IMG/VR virus record: IMGVR_UViG_3300029576_000011
Source of the DNA: a virus
Strand: one strand, 5' to 3'
DNA length: 43,214 nt
The translations under genes and the position numbers were made by a program. This document shows, in pieces, positions 10,504 to 37,752 of this stretch. The stretch's first letter is position 1; each line of letters opens with the position of its first letter. The notes under the pieces were generated by a model. It saw nothing but the letters and a program-made list of their open reading frames with translations, had not been told where the DNA came from and ran no database searches.

Positions 10504-11243
10504 ACAAGACGAAAATTGACTGGGCCACAATGTCCTGGAACCCCGTAACCGGCTGCCGCCATGGCTGCCCGTACTGCTACGCCAGGCGAACGGCCACACG
10601 CTTCAACGCAGGGCTGGAGGATCCGGCCCCGCTGGCCGGCGGCCTCCATGTGCTGCCGGAGAAGATCAAGGCGACGCCATACCCGTATGGTTTCGAGCCT
10701 ACCCTGCACCGCTACCGCCTGGGCCAGCCGCAGAACACAGAGGAACCGCAGACCGTGTTTGTTTGCAGCATGGCGGATCTGTTTGGGCGCTGGGTGCCCA
10801 CCTCCTGGATCGTGGAGGTGCTGGACGCCTGCCGCAAGGCACCCCAGCACCGCTATTTGTTCCTGACCAAGAACCCGGCCCGGTATCTGGAGTTGGACCA
10901 CCTGGCCCTCCTGCCCCACGAAAGCAATTTCTGGTATGGCAGCACCGTGGCGAACATGGACGCGGTGGGAATGTACGTCATGCAGGGCGTGAACATCAAC
11001 AGCTTTTGGAGCATGGAGCCGCTGCTGGGGCCGGTGGACATGGCCGCGGCGGAGGGGTTACCGGAGTGGGTGATCCTGGGCGCCGAAACCGGCAACCGAC
11101 CGGACAAGGTGACGCCCGCCCGCGAGTGGGTGGACAACATCGTGGCATTTTGCGAGGAGAACGAGATCCCTGTGTTCTTCAAGGAAAATCTGCGGAAGTA
11201 TTTCCCGGATCTCCCTGCCTCTGCTTTCCCCTGGGAGGTGTGA
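10500..11243 (+). CDS. phage Gp37/Gp68 family protein (DUF5131)
   Basis: The N-terminus KIDWATMSWNPVTGCRHGCPYCYA is the family signature; ATGA overlap; AAAGGAG RBS. Confidence 0.7.
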   Translation: MNKTKIDWATMSWNPVTGCRHGCPYCYARRTATRFNAGLEDPAPLAGGLHVLPEKIKATPYPYGFEPTLHRYRLGQPQNTEEPQTVFVCSMADLFGRWVPTSWIVEVLDACRKAPQHRYLFLTKNPARYLELDHLALLPHESNFWYGSTVANMDAVGMYVMQGVNINSFWSMEPLLGPVDMAAAEGLPEWVILGAETGNRPDKVTPAREWVDNIVAFCEENEIPVFFKENLRKYFPDLPASAFPWEV

Positions 11244-32435: not shown

Positions 32436-35144
32436 ATGTTTCAGGCCCCGAAACTGACAGACGCCGGCAAAAACCTGTATTACAGGAATATGGCCGGTGA
32501 GGGGATCAAATTCACAACCATTCAGCTGGGTAACGGCACAATCAGCGGCCCGATCTCCGCTATGACGGCCCTTGTCAGCGCCGTGGTGACTATTGACGCC
32601 GCGGTGAAGAACAACGCGGAGCAGTACGCCGACGTGTCCGGCCATTTCTCCAACGCAGAACTGGAGGAGGGTTTTTACTGGCGCGAGATCGGCGTGTTTG
32701 CGGCGGATCCCGATTACCCCAATGACCGCAGCCACGACATTCTTTACTGCTACCAAAACGCCTATGACACGGCGGACTTTATCCCCGTGGCGTCGGTGGA
32801 AACGGTGGAAAAAAACATTACTGTGCCCATTATCGTGGGCGACGCCTCCACGGTGTCCTGCACCCTGTCCAGTTCGCAGGTGCTGGTGTCGGAGGCGGAC
32901 CTGGAGGCGCACGACAAGGACGCGAACGCCCATAATGCCCTGTTTGAGAAGATCAACAAAGAACTGGAAAAGAAACAGGACACGATCACCGCCAAGGGCA
33001 TTTTGAAAGGCGGCCAGGACGCAAAGGGAAACCACACCGTGACCAAGGCCACGCCGGGCGTGGACTACCAGCAGCCCACCCAAGTGCTGACGGAAAGCAA
33101 CGCCATGGCCCTGACGGACACGGTTCCGTTTTTCTCCGGTGCTGACGGGCAAAACCGTAAGGTCACGCTGAAAAAGCTAAAGGAGGCCCTGGGCGTCCAG
33201 TCTGCCAGTATCAACGTGACGACCTGCGCCGGCGCGGCGGTGGTTTGCACGGACGGAGAAACCACCCTGAACGGCGTGGGTTCCACCAAGTTCTCCCTGC
33301 CGGAGAACACCGGCACCTGGGAGGTAACCGCCACCCTGAACGGCCACACGGCCAGCGCCGTGGTGGAGGTCACCGGCGCCATGCAGTACAACGTGGATCT
33401 GGTGATTACCTCCAGCGTGGCAGTTACCCACGCACCCACGAAAACCACCTACAACGTGGGGGAAACATTCGACCCCACCGGCCTGGTGGTCACCGCCACC
33501 TATGCCGACGGCACCACGGAGGACGTAACCGACGGCTGCACGTTCAGCCCCACCGTTATGGCAGCCAGCACCACGGCGGTGACGATCAAATACCAGCGGG
33601 CGGGCGTGACGGTCACGACCACCCAGGCGGTCACGGTCCTGGAAATGTCCAGCATTTCCGTGAAAACCGCACCCAACAAAACCGCGTATTACATCGGTGA
33701 GAGTTTCGACGCCACCGGAATGGTGATTGAGGCCACCATGTCCAACGGCACCAAAAAGACCGTGACGGGCTGGACGTACACCCCCAGCGGCGCCCTTTCC
33801 AAGACGGACACGGCGGTGACGATCTCCTACACGGAAAACGGCGTCACAAAGACCTGCACCCAGGCGATCACGATCCGCACCCTGTCCAGCATTTCCGTGA
33901 CGACGGCACCAACGAAAACCGCCTACAAGTACGGGGAGAAGTTCAGCAGCGCCGGAATGGTGATTACCGCCAAATATTCGGACAACGCCACCCGCGTGGT
34001 GACCGGCTGGACCTATTCACCCACCGGCGCCCTGGGAATGTCCAATACCACGATCACGATTACCTACGCAGAGGGCGGCGTGAGTAAGACCTGCACCCAG
34101 GCCATTACCGTGAGCAACTACCTTTCCAGTATCGCGGTGACACACGCACCCACGAAAACCTCCTATTTCACCGGCGAAACGTTCAACAGCGCGGGAATGG
34201 TGGTCACCGCTACCATGGCGGACGGCAGCAAAAAGACCGTCACCGGCTACACCTGCAGCCCCACCACCATGGCAGCCAACACCACGGCGGTCACTGTCAG
34301 CTATTCCGAGGGCGGCGTGACCAAGACGACCACCACCCCGGTGACGGTCACCAGCATTTCCAACACGCTGGCCTCCAACAGCTGGGCAACGATCCGCGCC
34401 GTGTCCGACGCCGGAAAAGGGTCCAATTACTGGAGCGTGGGCGACGCCAAGGGGATCACGATCAACGGCAAGGTGGGCGCCACGACGTTCTCCAATCTGG
34501 CCATTTCCGTGTTTATCCTGGGTTTCAACCACAACGCCAGCCGTGAGGGCAGCAACCGGATCCATTTCCAGATCGGTAAGATCAACGGCACCCTGGTGGG
34601 CCTGGTAGACGGCAATTACGGAAACAGTACCAGCACCACCGGCGCCTTTACCATGAACACGTCATACACGAACAGCGGCGGGTGGAATAACAGCCACATG
34701 AGAAAGACCGTGCTGGGCAGCAACAGCACCAGCGCCACCAGCCCCGCGGCCAACACCCTGCTGGCAGCCCTGCCGGCGGATCTCCGGGCGGTTATGAAGC
34801 CGGCCACCAAGTACAGCGACAACACCGGCGGCGGAAGTGACACCGCCAGCTATGTCACCAGCACCACGGATCTGCTGCCGCTGCTTTCGGAGTTTGAATA
34901 CCACGGGGCCAGAACCTACGCCAACAGCGCGGAGAAGAATTACCAGGCCCAGTATGACTATTACAAGGCTGGAAACAGCAGGGTGCATTATAAGCACAAC
35001 GCCACCGGCACGGCGGCCGGTGCGTGGTGCCGTTCCGTCAATTCGGGCGACTACGACTATTTCTGCCTTGTCAACACCGACGGCGGCGCCAGCTATGGCG
35101 GCGCCATCGGTTCCTGGGCGCTGGCCCCCTGCTTTTTTGTCTAA
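32436..35144 (+). CDS. tail fibre / receptor-binding protein; DGR variable (target) protein
   Basis: 902 aa; tail-collar-type N-terminus (KLTDAGKNLYY...IQLGNGT), four Ig-like repeats; the C-terminal domain ends in the VR (AWCRSVNSGDYDYFCLVNTDGGASYGGAIGSWALAPCFFV). Confidence 0.85.
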   Translation: MFQAPKLTDAGKNLYYRNMAGEGIKFTTIQLGNGTISGPISAMTALVSAVVTIDAAVKNNAEQYADVSGHFSNAELEEGFYWREIGVFAADPDYPNDRSHDILYCYQNAYDTADFIPVASVETVEKNITVPIIVGDASTVSCTLSSSQVLVSEADLEAHDKDANAHNALFEKINKELEKKQDTITAKGILKGGQDAKGNHTVTKATPGVDYQQPTQVLTESNAMALTDTVPFFSGADGQNRKVTLKKLKEALGVQSASINVTTCAGAAVVCTDGETTLNGVGSTKFSLPENTGTWEVTATLNGHTASAVVEVTGAMQYNVDLVITSSVAVTHAPTKTTYNVGETFDPTGLVVTATYADGTTEDVTDGCTFSPTVMAASTTAVTIKYQRAGVTVTTTQAVTVLEMSSISVKTAPNKTAYYIGESFDATGMVIEATMSNGTKKTVTGWTYTPSGALSKTDTAVTISYTENGVTKTCTQAITIRTLSSISVTTAPTKTAYKYGEKFSSAGMVITAKYSDNATRVVTGWTYSPTGALGMSNTTITITYAEGGVSKTCTQAITVSNYLSSIAVTHAPTKTSYFTGETFNSAGMVVTATMADGSKKTVTGYTCSPTTMAANTTAVTVSYSEGGVTKTTTTPVTVTSISNTLASNSWATIRAVSDAGKGSNYWSVGDAKGITINGKVGATTFSNLAISVFILGFNHNASREGSNRIHFQIGKINGTLVGLVDGNYGNSTSTTGAFTMNTSYTNSGGWNNSHMRKTVLGSNSTSATSPAANTLLAALPADLRAVMKPATKYSDNTGGGSDTASYVTSTTDLLPLLSEFEYHGARTYANSAEKNYQAQYDYYKAGNSRVHYKHNATGTAAGAWCRSVNSGDYDYFCLVNTDGGASYGGAIGSWALAPCFFV
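33411..34349 (+). repeat. four tandem ~79-80-aa Ig-like repeats (237-240-bp period) within the fibre gene
   Basis: Repeat units start at 33411, 33648, 33885 and 34125. Consensus: SSI(S/A)VT.APTKT.Y..GE.F...GMVV.AT..DG..K.VTG.T.SP......TAVT..Y.E.GVTK. Confidence 0.8.
35010..35136 (+). repeat. DGR variable repeat (VR)
   Basis: Gap-free alignment to 35748-35874 (offset 738). There are 16 mismatches within 35010-35131, all where the TR has A. Confidence 0.9.
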
Positions 35145-35167
35145 TCGCCGCAGCATATCCGGCAAAA

Positions 35168-35191
35168 TCCCGCCCACGGAAGTGGGCGGGA
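35168..35191 (+). promoter_or_regulatory. GC-rich hairpin 3' of the VR (candidate DGR target-recognition stem-loop)
   Basis: TCCCGCCCAC-GGAA-GTGGGCGGGA: 10-bp perfect stem, 4-nt loop, 36 nt after the last VR/TR-identical base. There is no equivalent after the TR. Confidence 0.6.
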
Positions 35192-35228
35192 AACCCGGAC
35201 AGAGAAAGAAAACCCGTGAGGTGAAAGA

Positions 35229-35687
35229 ATGTCAGTTCTGAAAGAAAAGCGGACCGTGAGCAAAGCGGAGTATGTGAACACCGCAAACCAGATTTATGTG
35301 GAAACGGTGGGCTTTTTGACGCGGCTTTCCGCCCGTTATTCCCGGCTGATTGCAGAGGGCACCGCGCAGCTGGCCGGTGAGGTCATGGACCACACCGAAA
35401 AGGCCAACAAAATATACCCGTCGGACGAACAGCGCAAAGCCCAGCGCAAGGCGCATTTGCTGGAGGCGCTGGCCTCCCTCTCTGCGCTGGACGTGCGCCT
35501 GACCCATGCCTATCTGGTTATGTACCAGAACCCGCAAGGGTGCTTTACGGCGCCAAGCGGAAAAACGGTCCCACCCAAGGAGGCCATGGACAAGCTGGAC
35601 CGCATGGCGCAGAGCCTGGGCGAACTGATAGACCGGGAGGACACCCTGCTGCGGAATATCCTGGAGAGCGACAGGAAGCGGAAATAA
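35229..35687 (+). CDS. avd: Avd-like accessory variability determinant (four-helix-bundle protein)
   Basis: 152-aa basic helical protein between VR and TR; ANQIYVETVGFL...EKANKIYPSDEQRKAQRKAHLLEALASLSALD resembles the four-helix-bundle (23S rRNA IVS protein) family. Confidence 0.6.
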   Translation: MSVLKEKRTVSKAEYVNTANQIYVETVGFLTRLSARYSRLIAEGTAQLAGEVMDHTEKANKIYPSDEQRKAQRKAHLLEALASLSALDVRLTHAYLVMYQNPQGCFTAPSGKTVPPKEAMDKLDRMAQSLGELIDREDTLLRNILESDRKRK

Positions 35688-35747
35688 GTCATTTTTATGG
35701 GTGTATCTTTGAAAACGCGCCGGGAGGCAGGGCGGCTTTTCCCTCTG

Positions 35748-35874
35748 ACGGCGGCCAATGCGTGGTGCCGTTCCGTCAATTCGGGCAACAACAACAATTT
35801 CTGCCTTGTCAACACCGACGGCAGCGCCAACAATAACAACGCCAACAATTCCTGGGCGCTGGCCCCCTGATTTT
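35748..35874 (+). repeat. DGR template repeat (TR)
   Basis: Non-coding copy of the VR, rich in AAC/AAT (AACAACAACAAT; AACAATAACAAC; AACAAT). I count 30 A in the 122-nt core. Confidence 0.9.
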
Positions 35875-36088
35875 GCATAACTGGGTCAAATGCAGTAACG
35901 AACGTGAACCGGACCCATGTAAAAGGAAAGATACTTCCCTGGCGAAAGCCTGAAACTGCCCGCTGATGATCCCGCGCGGACGCTGCTTGCATGGCGGGGG
36001 TATTGTGCTAACCCCGTTTCATGCGCTGGATCGAAGCAGTTTAGACGCACACCAACACCACAACTGTACGGAGGGCGAATACTTTTCT

Positions 36089-37137
36089 ATGACAAGCGAA
36101 CAGCGCCGCGAGGCGCGTTACAGACGCCGCCAGACAAGGCGGCAGGCAAAGCGAAAGGCCCGCAGCGACGCCCTGGGGCCGATTGAGGAAGTTTTCAGTT
36201 ACCGCGCCATGTTTTTCTATGGCCGGAAATGCTGCAACGGCGTGAGGTGGAAAGCCAGCACACAGCGGTTTGAAATGCACCTGTTTTCCGGCACCGCCAA
36301 GCGCCGGCGCAAGATCCTGAATGGAACATGGAAGCCAGGCAAAACCGCCCATTTCACCCTGAAAGAACGGGGCAAGGTTCGACCAATAGACGCGCCGCAC
36401 ATTGAGGATCGGCAGGTTTATGCGGCGGCCTGCATTTCCATTACAGACGCCTGGCCAAGCACCTGCGGGACCATTACCGCAAGCATGGCCTGGAGGGTGC
36501 CCTGTTCCTGATGGATTTTCACCACTTTTTCCCGGACGCGCCCCACGCGCTGCTGTATGAGCGGCACCGGGGCATGATCCTAAACCCGGACCTGCGGCAG
36601 TTGGCCGATCTGGTGGTGGCAGCTGTGCCGGGCGGCGTGGGTATGCCGCTGGGCGTGGAGCCAAGCCAGCAGGAAATGGTGGCGCTGCCGTCCTCCCTGG
36701 ACAACCGGATCAAAGCCCAGCTTTCGATCCATGGCGCTGCCCATTACATGGACGACTATTACACCATTCTGCCGTCGAAGCAGGCGGCGGAGGTGACCGC
36801 GGCGGACGTGATCGGCCACGCGGAGGCCATGGGCCTGCAGGTCAACGCCGGAAAGTCAAAAGTGGTTCCGTTCTCCAGACCGTTCCGGTTCTGCAAAGCA
36901 AAGTTTCAGGTGACGGACACCGGCGCCGTGAAGATCCACGGCTGCCGGGACGGCATGAAGCGGGCACGGCGGAAACTGCGGCTTTTCCAGGCGCGTGTGG
37001 CCAGCGGTGAAATGACGGTGGAGCAGGTGGCCCAATGGCTGCAAACACCGATTTCCTATTATGAAAACTTCAACGATCACGGCAGGGTGCTGAAACTGCG
37101 GCGGCTATTTTATGCGATTTTCAAAACGGAGGTGTAA
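36089..37137 (+). pseudogene. DGR-type reverse transcriptase with an interrupted reading frame
   Basis: Frame A (36089-36511) carries GKVRPIDAPHIEDRQVY (RT motif 1) and then runs into a stop. Frame B (open from 36406 to 37137) carries LHFHYRRLAKHL, LMDFHHFFPDAPH (motif 3), GMPLGVEPSQQ ([ILV]GxxxSQ motif 4) and HYMDDYY (YxDD). Confidence 0.75.
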
Positions 37138-37140
37138 ACC

Positions 37141-37752
37141 ATGTTCAAGATCACAAAAGACGGGGCGACCGTGGCCATGACCGAGGCCCCCAACTACATC
37201 AAGCAGGCGGAAAACGGCTGTTTCGTGCTGTGCCCGGAGGCGGAGGCCACGGGGATCGCGCACAACGGCACCGTTTACCACCTCCTGGGACGCCCTGACA
37301 TGGCAGGGGCAGAAATCACGGTCATGCTGGAAGAAACGGACGCGGGAGTGGAGATCGCCAAGGCGGCAGACGCTACGGGGATCGTGTTCGTCACAATGGC
37401 GGAGGCCGGAAGCGTGGACGCCACAACGGCGGCGGAACACGCGGATCTTTTCGCGCCGTGGGCGGTGCCGGTGGCCTATACCGTGGGCCAGATCCGCAGA
37501 TATACGGACGGGAAGCTATATAAATGCGTTCAGGCCCATACGTCACAAGCGGACTGGACGCCGGACAAAACCGCAAGCCTTTGGACGCCGGTTTCCGATC
37601 CGGCGGAGGAATGGCCGGAATGGTCCCAGCCGGTTGGCGCACATGACGCATACAGCAAGGACGCCAAGGTGTCGCACAATGGCAAGCATTGGACCAGCAC
37701 TGTGGACAGCAACGTGTGGGAGCCTGGCGTGTACGGGTGGACGGAGGTGTAA
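37141..37752 (+). CDS. carbohydrate-binding protein with two CBM5/12-like (chitin-binding type 3) repeats
   Basis: C-terminal YKCVQAHTSQADWTPDKTASLWTPV and VSHNGKHWTSTVDSNVWEPGVYGWTEV match the aromatic pattern of CBM5/12. Confidence 0.55.
   Translation: MFKITKDGATVAMTEAPNYIKQAENGCFVLCPEAEATGIAHNGTVYHLLGRPDMAGAEITVMLEETDAGVEIAKAADATGIVFVTMAEAGSVDATTAAEHADLFAPWAVPVAYTVGQIRRYTDGKLYKCVQAHTSQADWTPDKTASLWTPVSDPAEEWPEWSQPVGAHDAYSKDAKVSHNGKHWTSTVDSNVWEPGVYGWTEV

Follow-up and report, generated by a model that had tools for sequence, protein, structure and literature searches.

The viral DNA record IMGVR_UViG_3300029576_000011 of IMG/VR (43,214 nt, analysed at its full length and referred to here as the window) contains a genuine diversity-generating retroelement (DGR), in which a variable repeat (VR) at the 3' end of a tail-fibre gene is paired with a template repeat (TR) that lies downstream, next to a gene for reverse transcriptase (RT). 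The region very probably represents the FP_Taranis-like family of DGRs as it is found in temperate myoviruses of gut Oscillospiraceae, in a copy whose RT gene has been broken by a 76-nt deletion and whose VR is most likely frozen. The components of the cassette, with protein lengths in amino acids (aa), are the following.

32436-35144, + strand: the target gene, encoding a 902-aa tail fibre with a tail-fibre N-terminus, four Big_3 repeats and a C-terminal DUF6273 domain (assigned by sequence comparison) that includes the VR.
35010-35131, + strand: the VR, fibre codons 859-899 of 902, whose mismatches to the TR are all at adenines.
35168-35191, + strand: a G+C-rich hairpin or cruciform, TCCCGCCCAC-GGAA-GTGGGCGGGA, with a 10-bp stem and a GRNA-type loop.
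35229-35687, + strand: an accessory gene of 152 aa in the avd position, its product predicted to be all-helical.
35748-35869, + strand: the TR, non-coding, with 30 adenines and, in the fibre frame, 11 AAY codons.
35881-36096, + strand: a spacer RNA, Rfam family RF03077 (RT-2 RNA), full length and filling the TR-to-RT spacer.
36089-37137, + strand: the RT pseudogene, two fragments in different frames, with LGVEPSQ at 36649-36669 and YMDD at 36745-36756.
36421/36422, + strand: the deletion junction, at which 76 nt of close relatives are missing and the frame is shifted.

Identification of the region as a DGR rests in the first place on the distribution of differences between the two repeats. A repeat finder and direct comparison agree in aligning VR and TR over 122 nt without gaps, at an offset of 738 nt and with 16 mismatches. 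Every one of these falls on a TR adenine (12 A>G and 4 A>T), and the hypergeometric probability of placing all 16 on the 30 adenines of the 122-nt TR is P = 3.5e-12. (An initial annotation, made from the sequence alone, had described precisely this alignment and had named a mismatch at a non-adenine position of the TR as the observation that would speak against it; over the 122 nt in the window there is none.) The codon table likewise confirms the pattern proposed there: in the fibre frame, 11 AAY codons and one AGC codon of the TR become G, DYDY, G, SYGG and IG in the VR. The VR is located at the 3' end of the coding target, and the TR is non-coding and adjoins the RT gene, lying 214 nt upstream of its start. 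No copy of the repeat beyond these two is present in the window, and a second VR elsewhere in it is accordingly rejected. A 57-aa open reading frame (ORF) at 35697-35870 is the TR read in the fibre frame (…AWCRSVNSGNNNNFCLVNTDGSANNNNANNSWALAP), which gene callers report as a hypothetical protein (Dulem virus 34 and the JGI record are examples). A scan of the window for promoters and terminators gave nothing exceeding shuffled expectation.

The 3' boundary of the repeats has the form expected of a DGR. The last ~20 nt of the VR (35112-35131, ...TGGGCGCTGGCCCCCTG) are G+C-rich, invariant and similar in character to an initiation of mutagenic homing (IMH) site: a common segment, GGGCGCTGGCCCCCTG, is followed by a fixed difference between VR and TR. 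The repeat finder carries the two-copy direct repeat on to 127 nt (35010-35136 and 35748-35874; 87% identical), and it is this extension that brings in the 17th difference, TR A35870 against VR C35132. Because the difference is fixed in all four of the divergent phages compared, we read it as the boundary between IMH and IMH*, where the 3' ends of VR and TR diverge, and not as a product of mutagenesis.

Relatives of the window carry the same signature. Scans made with the intact form of the RT (described below) yielded 80 loci in viral contigs and 28 in bacterial genomes. At 41 related loci (three phage records and 38 viral-contig loci) a direct repeat of 103-134 nt has its second copy just upstream of a homologous RT gene, and the differences between the copies are almost entirely on adenines of the RT-proximal one. 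A set of 18 close relatives, with RTs 87-100% identical (at least 95% in 16 of the 18), contains 16 distinct VRs and only nine TRs. When their TR-to-VR differences are pooled, 260 of 270 coincide with a TR adenine (130 A>G, 83 A>T and 47 A>C). Column by column, variation between these genomes is seen at 29 of the 30 TR adenines, as against nine of the 92 other positions, and four of these nine are sites that are polymorphic in the TR itself, with the VR mostly following its own TR. Thus, point variants of the TR at 35761 (C/T) and 35784 (G/A) are mirrored in relatives at the corresponding VR positions, 35023 and 35046. That changes in a TR reappear in the matching VR is direct evidence of TR-to-VR information flow in this lineage.

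One non-adenine site behaves differently. At window position 35068 (TR 35806) the TR has T (CTGCCTTGTC) in every genome, and the VR has G (Leu878>Arg) in about one quarter of the relatives (the loci L007, L009, L015, L019, L090, L117, L120, L123 and L124). Adenine-templated variable sites flank this position on both sides, and adenine mutagenesis offers no explanation for a T>G change; it could reflect low-level misincorporation opposite U combined with selection, or an older state of the TR.

The RT gene of the window, taken in the initial annotation for a single working gene, is in fact split. The ORF list and a three-frame translation resolve it into an N-terminal fragment at 36089-36511 (140 aa, of which the last 29 are out of frame) and a C-terminal fragment at 36511-37137 (208 aa, in another frame) that carries LGVEPSQ and YMDD. 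The nearest GenBank record, MT835543.1, is an unannotated 43,080-nt phage scaffold from human faeces, 97-99% identical to the window over 34400-37400; it contains a further 76 bases at the place of the window's 36421/36422 junction and, with them, an intact RT ORF of 374 aa. The missing 76 nt encode KVLTKKVLVPLYVPSMIYDNKASQK, which constitutes RT motifs 1-2 (the fingers) and aligns to 'RLVQHALC-NIVAPIFEAGLLPYTYACRPDKG' of the RT of phage BPP-1. All seven close relatives aligned over ~10 kb break at this same point, the window alone being without the 76 nt, and comparison with one relative (L015) shows no other insertion or deletion over 9.8 kb. The 374-aa ORF is intact in 27 of the 29 close relatives that have a complete RT region. 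(In terms of profile scores, the intact RT passes the Pfam RVT_1 threshold, with 36.1 bits against 29.6, and the window fragments fail it.) An intact RT of DGR type (motif 4 [LIV]GxxxSQ, YxDD) is a property of the close relatives and not of the window. Because the deletion and the frameshift disrupt the RT, this copy of the DGR is, to judge from its sequence, probably inactive, and the VR of the window is most likely the frozen product of earlier diversification.

The deletion is found in more than one assembly. In an exact-sequence look-up, the frameshifted 140-aa protein was matched by contigs of JGI (3300045988), of ENA (ERZ824480; SPAdes node, ~12x coverage) and of Logan (ERR911957). Over the region compared, the Logan contig equals the window and the JGI and ENA contigs differ from it at two bases of the endolysin gene only; all three have the VR of the window and are identical across the cassette. 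Because the same junction recurs in these three other assemblies, the deletion is not a quirk of the assembler, and the junction contains no repeat or microhomology by which an assembler could be misled. Exact scans of the viral_contigs and JGI metagenome_contigs collections with the 33-nt junction found no match, which reflects the content of these collections and not absence; JGI record 3300045988 Ga0495776_055888 contains the junction despite the empty DNA scans.

Loss of the RT is also not confined to the window. The 208-aa C-terminal fragment is indexed in 51 collection blocks; 23 carrier contigs were read and 10 places listed. The lesions identified in this way, together with two from the scan of viral contigs, include the following.

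L117: +A at RT codon 137.
L124: +A at RT codon 136.
L125: -C at RT codon 154.
L121: TAC>TAA at RT codon 155.
L126: an 18-nt deletion creating TAG at RT codon 155.
L118, L120 and L123: larger RT deletions or rearrangements.
L023: frameshift at RT codon 325 (viral-contig scan).
L021: frameshift at RT codon 43 (viral-contig scan).

Natural contigs thus hold at least 10 independent RT-inactivating lesions, comprising frameshifts, nonsense changes and deletions that range from 18 nt to over 1 kb. L118 has neither accessory gene nor TR and is missing the 5' portion of the RT gene; the other RT-null contigs tested keep an adenine-biased VR/TR pair. RT-null alleles are a small minority relative to the contigs with intact RT, which number at least 2000, and their occurrence is consistent with an RT that is dispensable for phage propagation and occasionally lost. 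A slippage hot spot or phase-variable switch is rejected as the source of these alleles: the lesions are at different positions, and only two of the five single-base insertions or deletions (those of L124 and L021) extend a short homopolymer run. (That lesions cluster at codons 112-157 results from the retrieval, since the contigs were fetched by way of the 208-aa fragment, and does not mark a hot spot.) The RT-null series provides natural controls for the cost and benefit of DGR activity to a temperate phage.

Two structured elements accompany the repeats. The hairpin begins 32-37 nt after the VR, and the stability of its DNA fold (z = -4.1) is matched by none of 200 shuffles. Of 42 loci, 36 have hairpins with exact stems at a distance of 32-40 nt beyond the repeat; their stems vary with the locus (examples are CCCGCCCAC, CCGCCCCC, CCGCCCAT, CCCACCCCAT and CCGCCGCC) and their loops are nearly always GGAA, GAAA or GCAA. 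The conserved pattern described for DGR hairpins consists of GC stems of 7-10 bp with GRNA loops, 4-34 bp after the VR (PMC3240598), and Guo et al. found that the post-VR hairpin of BPP-1 is required for retrohoming (PMC3240598).

The second element is the RNA encoded between TR and RT, which matches RF03077 at 170 bits (gathering score 40) over model positions 1-222 of 222. RT-2 RNA occupies the same position, at full length, in all 16 of the diverse related loci tested, and the 214-nt spacer DNA remains 70-88% identical even where the RTs are only 55-60% identical. Alignment of 22 spacer sequences (MAFFT/RNAalifold) yields 39 base pairs, 18 of them with compensatory changes; 97.4% of cells are paired, as against 34-54% in slid controls, and the observed covariation is reached by none of 500 shuffles. 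(The single-sequence fold of the spacer RNA is no better than that of shuffles, z = -0.36, and the structure emerges only through the alignment and Rfam.) Weinberg et al. described the motifs RT-1 to RT-19 in 2017 as lying near RT genes, tied RT-10 alone to a DGR (as the TR-to-brt spacer of BPP-1), and speculated that other RT motifs serve other DGRs (PMC5737381). RT-2, an orphan among the Rfam families, is the TR-to-RT spacer RNA of the DGR clade analysed here. A literature search found no paper stating a link between RT-2 and DGRs, and the assignment extends the single RT-10/BPP-1 link of Weinberg et al.

The target of diversification is the distal part of the tail fibre. PHROG tail-fibre families match residues 7-261 (phrog_37900, E 5e-104), Pfam recognizes four Big_3 Ig-like repeats (E 4e-25, with a 237-nt period in the DNA), and the gene follows baseplate genes of the P2 J/I type (Tail_P2_I). 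These matches support the layout that had initially been proposed for the 902-aa protein, with a phage tail-fibre N-terminus and four Ig-like repeats. The accompanying suggestion that the scaffold bearing the VR may be new fails. On sequence comparison the C-terminal domain is DUF6273 (PF19789), a published DGR target domain. The window fibre itself scores 17.7 bits on this model, under the cut-off of 23.5, probably on account of its particular VR residues; homologues 94%, 74% and 67% identical to it score 26-30 bits (29.9 for the first of these), and gp68 of phage FP_Taranis, annotated as 'DGR target', scores 54. Comparison of the domain with gp68 by hhalign gives E = 1e-86 and 51% identity, with the VRs aligned. 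A homology search returned 4108 sequences; 120 of them were listed, and PF19789 is present in most of these. For the Faecalibacterium phages Pioen, Roos and Lelie a VR at the C-terminus of DUF6273 is on record (PMC11792537), and in the tentaclins DUF6273 has been modelled as C-lectin-like (PMC10743442). An AlphaFold2 model of fibre residues 637-902, built with 34 homologues of at least 67% identity, has a predicted local distance difference test score (pLDDT) of 48, and below 40 over the VR, and is too poor for a fold search; the fibre tip has no sequence similarity to Mtd or to PDB chains. Since the VR specifies the tip of a fibre attached to the baseplate, a switching of tropism or receptor may reasonably be supposed.

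Another gene of this neighbourhood, 37141-37752, follows directly after the RT gene and encodes a 203-aa protein with a carbohydrate-binding module, CBM_5_12. All close relatives have the gene at this place, and its product may be a second adhesin or a fibre accessory protein.

The accessory gene takes the place of avd, and its product had been called Avd-like. It shares with bAvd, the Avd protein of BPP-1, its position, size (152 aa), helical content and basic isoelectric point (9.2; 9.55 for bAvd), and these are the only points of agreement. The protein belongs to phrog_30516 (function unknown) and to a family with 1554 homologues, none with a Pfam domain, and at least 505 cluster representatives; its AlphaFold2 model (pLDDT 78) consists of three long helices. 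Similarity to bAvd is not detectable by any of the comparisons made: Pfam PF22296, on which bAvd scores 123 bits, matches none of 38 members of the accessory family at E <= 1; hhalign of the family against bAvd gives a probability of 0.2-0.3; a Foldseek search of PDB and BFVD with the model returns nothing better than E 0.37; and profiles made from shallow and from deeper (Neff 4) alignments find no relative in bAvd, Pfam, NCBIfam or PDB. Because the protein is not recognizable as Avd, pipelines that require Avd will mislabel this DGR clade.

That the DGR might still be fully active in this phage, either because the 76-nt gap arose as an artefact of sequencing or assembly, or because RT is supplied in trans by a co-resident DGR prophage that recognizes RT-2, is improbable. 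The intactness of everything apart from the RT (TR, VR, hairpin, RT-2 RNA and accessory gene) speaks for it, as do the retention of RT-2 RNA across RTs that are 55-60% identical, the existence of one host genome with two related DGR prophages, and the probable origin of the deletion contigs in one sample, at ~12x coverage. It is opposed by the identity of the junction in three independent assemblies, with no repeat or microhomology there, and by the other RT lesions in natural contigs of the same phage, which establish that RT-null alleles do occur in the lineage; trans-complementation between DGRs is not known from the FP_Taranis-like family.

Several considerations weigh against the preferred reading of the window cassette as a broken member of this family with a frozen VR. 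The three assemblies with the deletion probably derive from one sample, so that a sample-specific artefact is possible. A related co-resident prophage could in principle supply RT in trans, and the 208-aa C-terminal fragment could still be translated; present inactivity is deduced from the lesion in the gene. About 4% of the TR-to-VR differences among the close relatives are at non-adenine positions, with T>G at the equivalent of 35068 recurring. The accessory protein is not demonstrably Avd and may be a very divergent one, and the C-lectin fold of the target would be that of other DUF6273 proteins (PMC10743442).

The kinship of the RT bears on a further alternative, an ordinary, drifted partial gene duplication that happens to lie beside an unrelated RT (of a retron, group II intron or defence system). 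The intact 374-aa homologue of MT835543.1, 99% identical to the RT of the window, finds its best match among solved structures in the BPP-1 RT (8ub7; E 7e-7, residues 33-325; the next RT is at E 0.06), and it can be aligned with the BPP-1 protein, bRT, across motifs 1-7, including IGSLTSQ of bRT opposite LGVEPSQ. With the RT of FP_Taranis, whose DGR is annotated, it shares 55% identity. Both motifs that had been singled out at the start, LGxxxSQ and YMDD, are present. Models for retron, abortive infection (Abi) and defence-associated (DRT) RTs give weak scores of at most 26 bits, as compared with 44 bits for a generic RT model that is also the best for bRT; the group II maturase model gives 43.9 bits against a cut-off of 300. 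The only Rfam match at the cassette is RT-2, with none to RNAs of group II introns or retrons, and an RT of group II intron, retron or defence type is rejected on these grounds. The duplication is effectively refuted: nothing specific favours it (the maturase and DRT scores represent general RT homology), and drift would put neither all 16 differences of the window nor 260 of 270 across relatives on adenines, nor would it copy TR changes into the VR.

A mechanism can be proposed for the intact lineage. The TR and the adjoining RT-2 spacer RNA would be transcribed, and the RT, probably aided by the accessory protein (small, basic and helical), would copy the TR to cDNA, misincorporating opposite adenines. 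The cDNA would then replace the VR in the 3'-terminal part of the fibre gene, guided by the common G+C-rich 3' segment and by the hairpin ~35 nt downstream, and the outcome would be the recoding of 12 codons of the DUF6273 (C-lectin-like) receptor-binding tip. In the genome of the window the 76-nt deletion has taken away RT motifs 1-2 and shifted the frame, and diversification has most likely ended. (Three elements of this scheme are our inference: that the spacer RNA acts in priming, what the accessory protein does, and that receptors are switched.) A broader and decidedly tentative proposal is that phages of Oscillospiraceae and Faecalibacterium share a large DGR clade with a module distinct from that of BPP-1, in which RT-2 would serve as priming or scaffold RNA, phrog_30516, without sequence kinship to Avd, would provide the accessory protein, and RT-null phages such as the present one would perhaps be diversified in trans by a relative in the same host. 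This last might be so because RT-2 is highly conserved across RTs that are 55-60% identical.

At ~43 kb the window comprises an entire myovirus genome, which is co-linear with that of Dulem virus 34. In NCBI the intact RT protein is recorded for Dysosmobacter welbionis and Intestinimonas butyriciproducens; Dysosmobacter segnis BX15 carries it too, as do several metagenome-assembled genomes (MAGs) of Oscillospiraceae. Two exact variants of the intact RT each occur on at least 1000 contigs, which reach 2.5 Mb in length. The number of contigs for each variant and the host genomes therefore identify a very common temperate phage of gut Oscillospiraceae. D. segnis BX15, an isolate, has two related DGR prophages, L085 and L104, whose RTs share 99% and 56% identity with the intact RT; at L104 the spacer is RT-2-like, as judged by similarity to the window spacer, and cross-talk is possible. 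A single MAG contig (CAUEFI010000004.1) carries the same cassette twice, ~43 kb apart and with identical VR and TR (L088 at 77407-88528 and L089 at 120458-131579), which could reflect a tandem prophage or assembly of a concatemer. At L105, an Oscillospiraceae prophage locus with a related DGR, a type II hammerhead ribozyme (RF02276; 37.4 bits, gathering score 37) is encoded on the - strand at 10946-11011. Tail-fibre DGRs are common in gut phages, and the DUF6273/FP_Taranis-like family has already been published; the present analysis adds one member, belonging to a very prevalent prophage of Dysosmobacter and Intestinimonas.

Among known systems, the DGRs of FP_Taranis, Pioen and Roos (NC_047914; PMC11792537) are the closest counterparts. 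They have the same order of target, 152-aa accessory ORF, TR, RT-2 RNA and RT. FP_Taranis resembles the window in its RT (55% identity), in the C-terminal domain of its target (51% identity, with the VR at the C-terminus of DUF6273), in a post-VR hairpin with a GGAA loop and in the presence of RT-2 RNA. It differs in that its target is a protein of 546 aa, whereas the window encodes a baseplate-proximal fibre of 902 aa in which four Big_3 repeats accompany a P2-like N-terminus; in its host, which is Faecalibacterium in place of the Dysosmobacter, Intestinimonas and other Oscillospiraceae of the window phage; in an extra small Arc-like ORF between target and accessory gene; and in that the RT is broken in the window copy.

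Comparison with BPP-1 (mtd-avd-TR-brt) confirms the likeness of gene order, target-accessory-TR-RT, to which the initial annotation had drawn attention. Further features in common are the adenine-specific differences, the G+C-rich 3' end of the VR, RTs that align across motifs 1-7, a GC-rich hairpin after the VR (GCGGGGCC-GAAA-GGCCCCGC in BPP-1, with a GRNA loop as in the window), and a structured RNA in the TR-to-RT spacer, which is RT-10 in BPP-1 (PMC5737381) and RT-2, a different Rfam family, here. In contrast, the target in the window is a DUF6273 protein and not Mtd, no relationship between the accessory protein and bAvd is detectable, the spacer measures 214 nt as compared with 144 nt in BPP-1, and the fibre context is that of a myovirus, BPP-1 being a podovirus. 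The tentaclins of uncultured gut phages (PMC10743442) also combine DUF6273 with a VR, at the N-terminus of the protein; in the window the combination is C-terminal, on a fibre attached to the baseplate.

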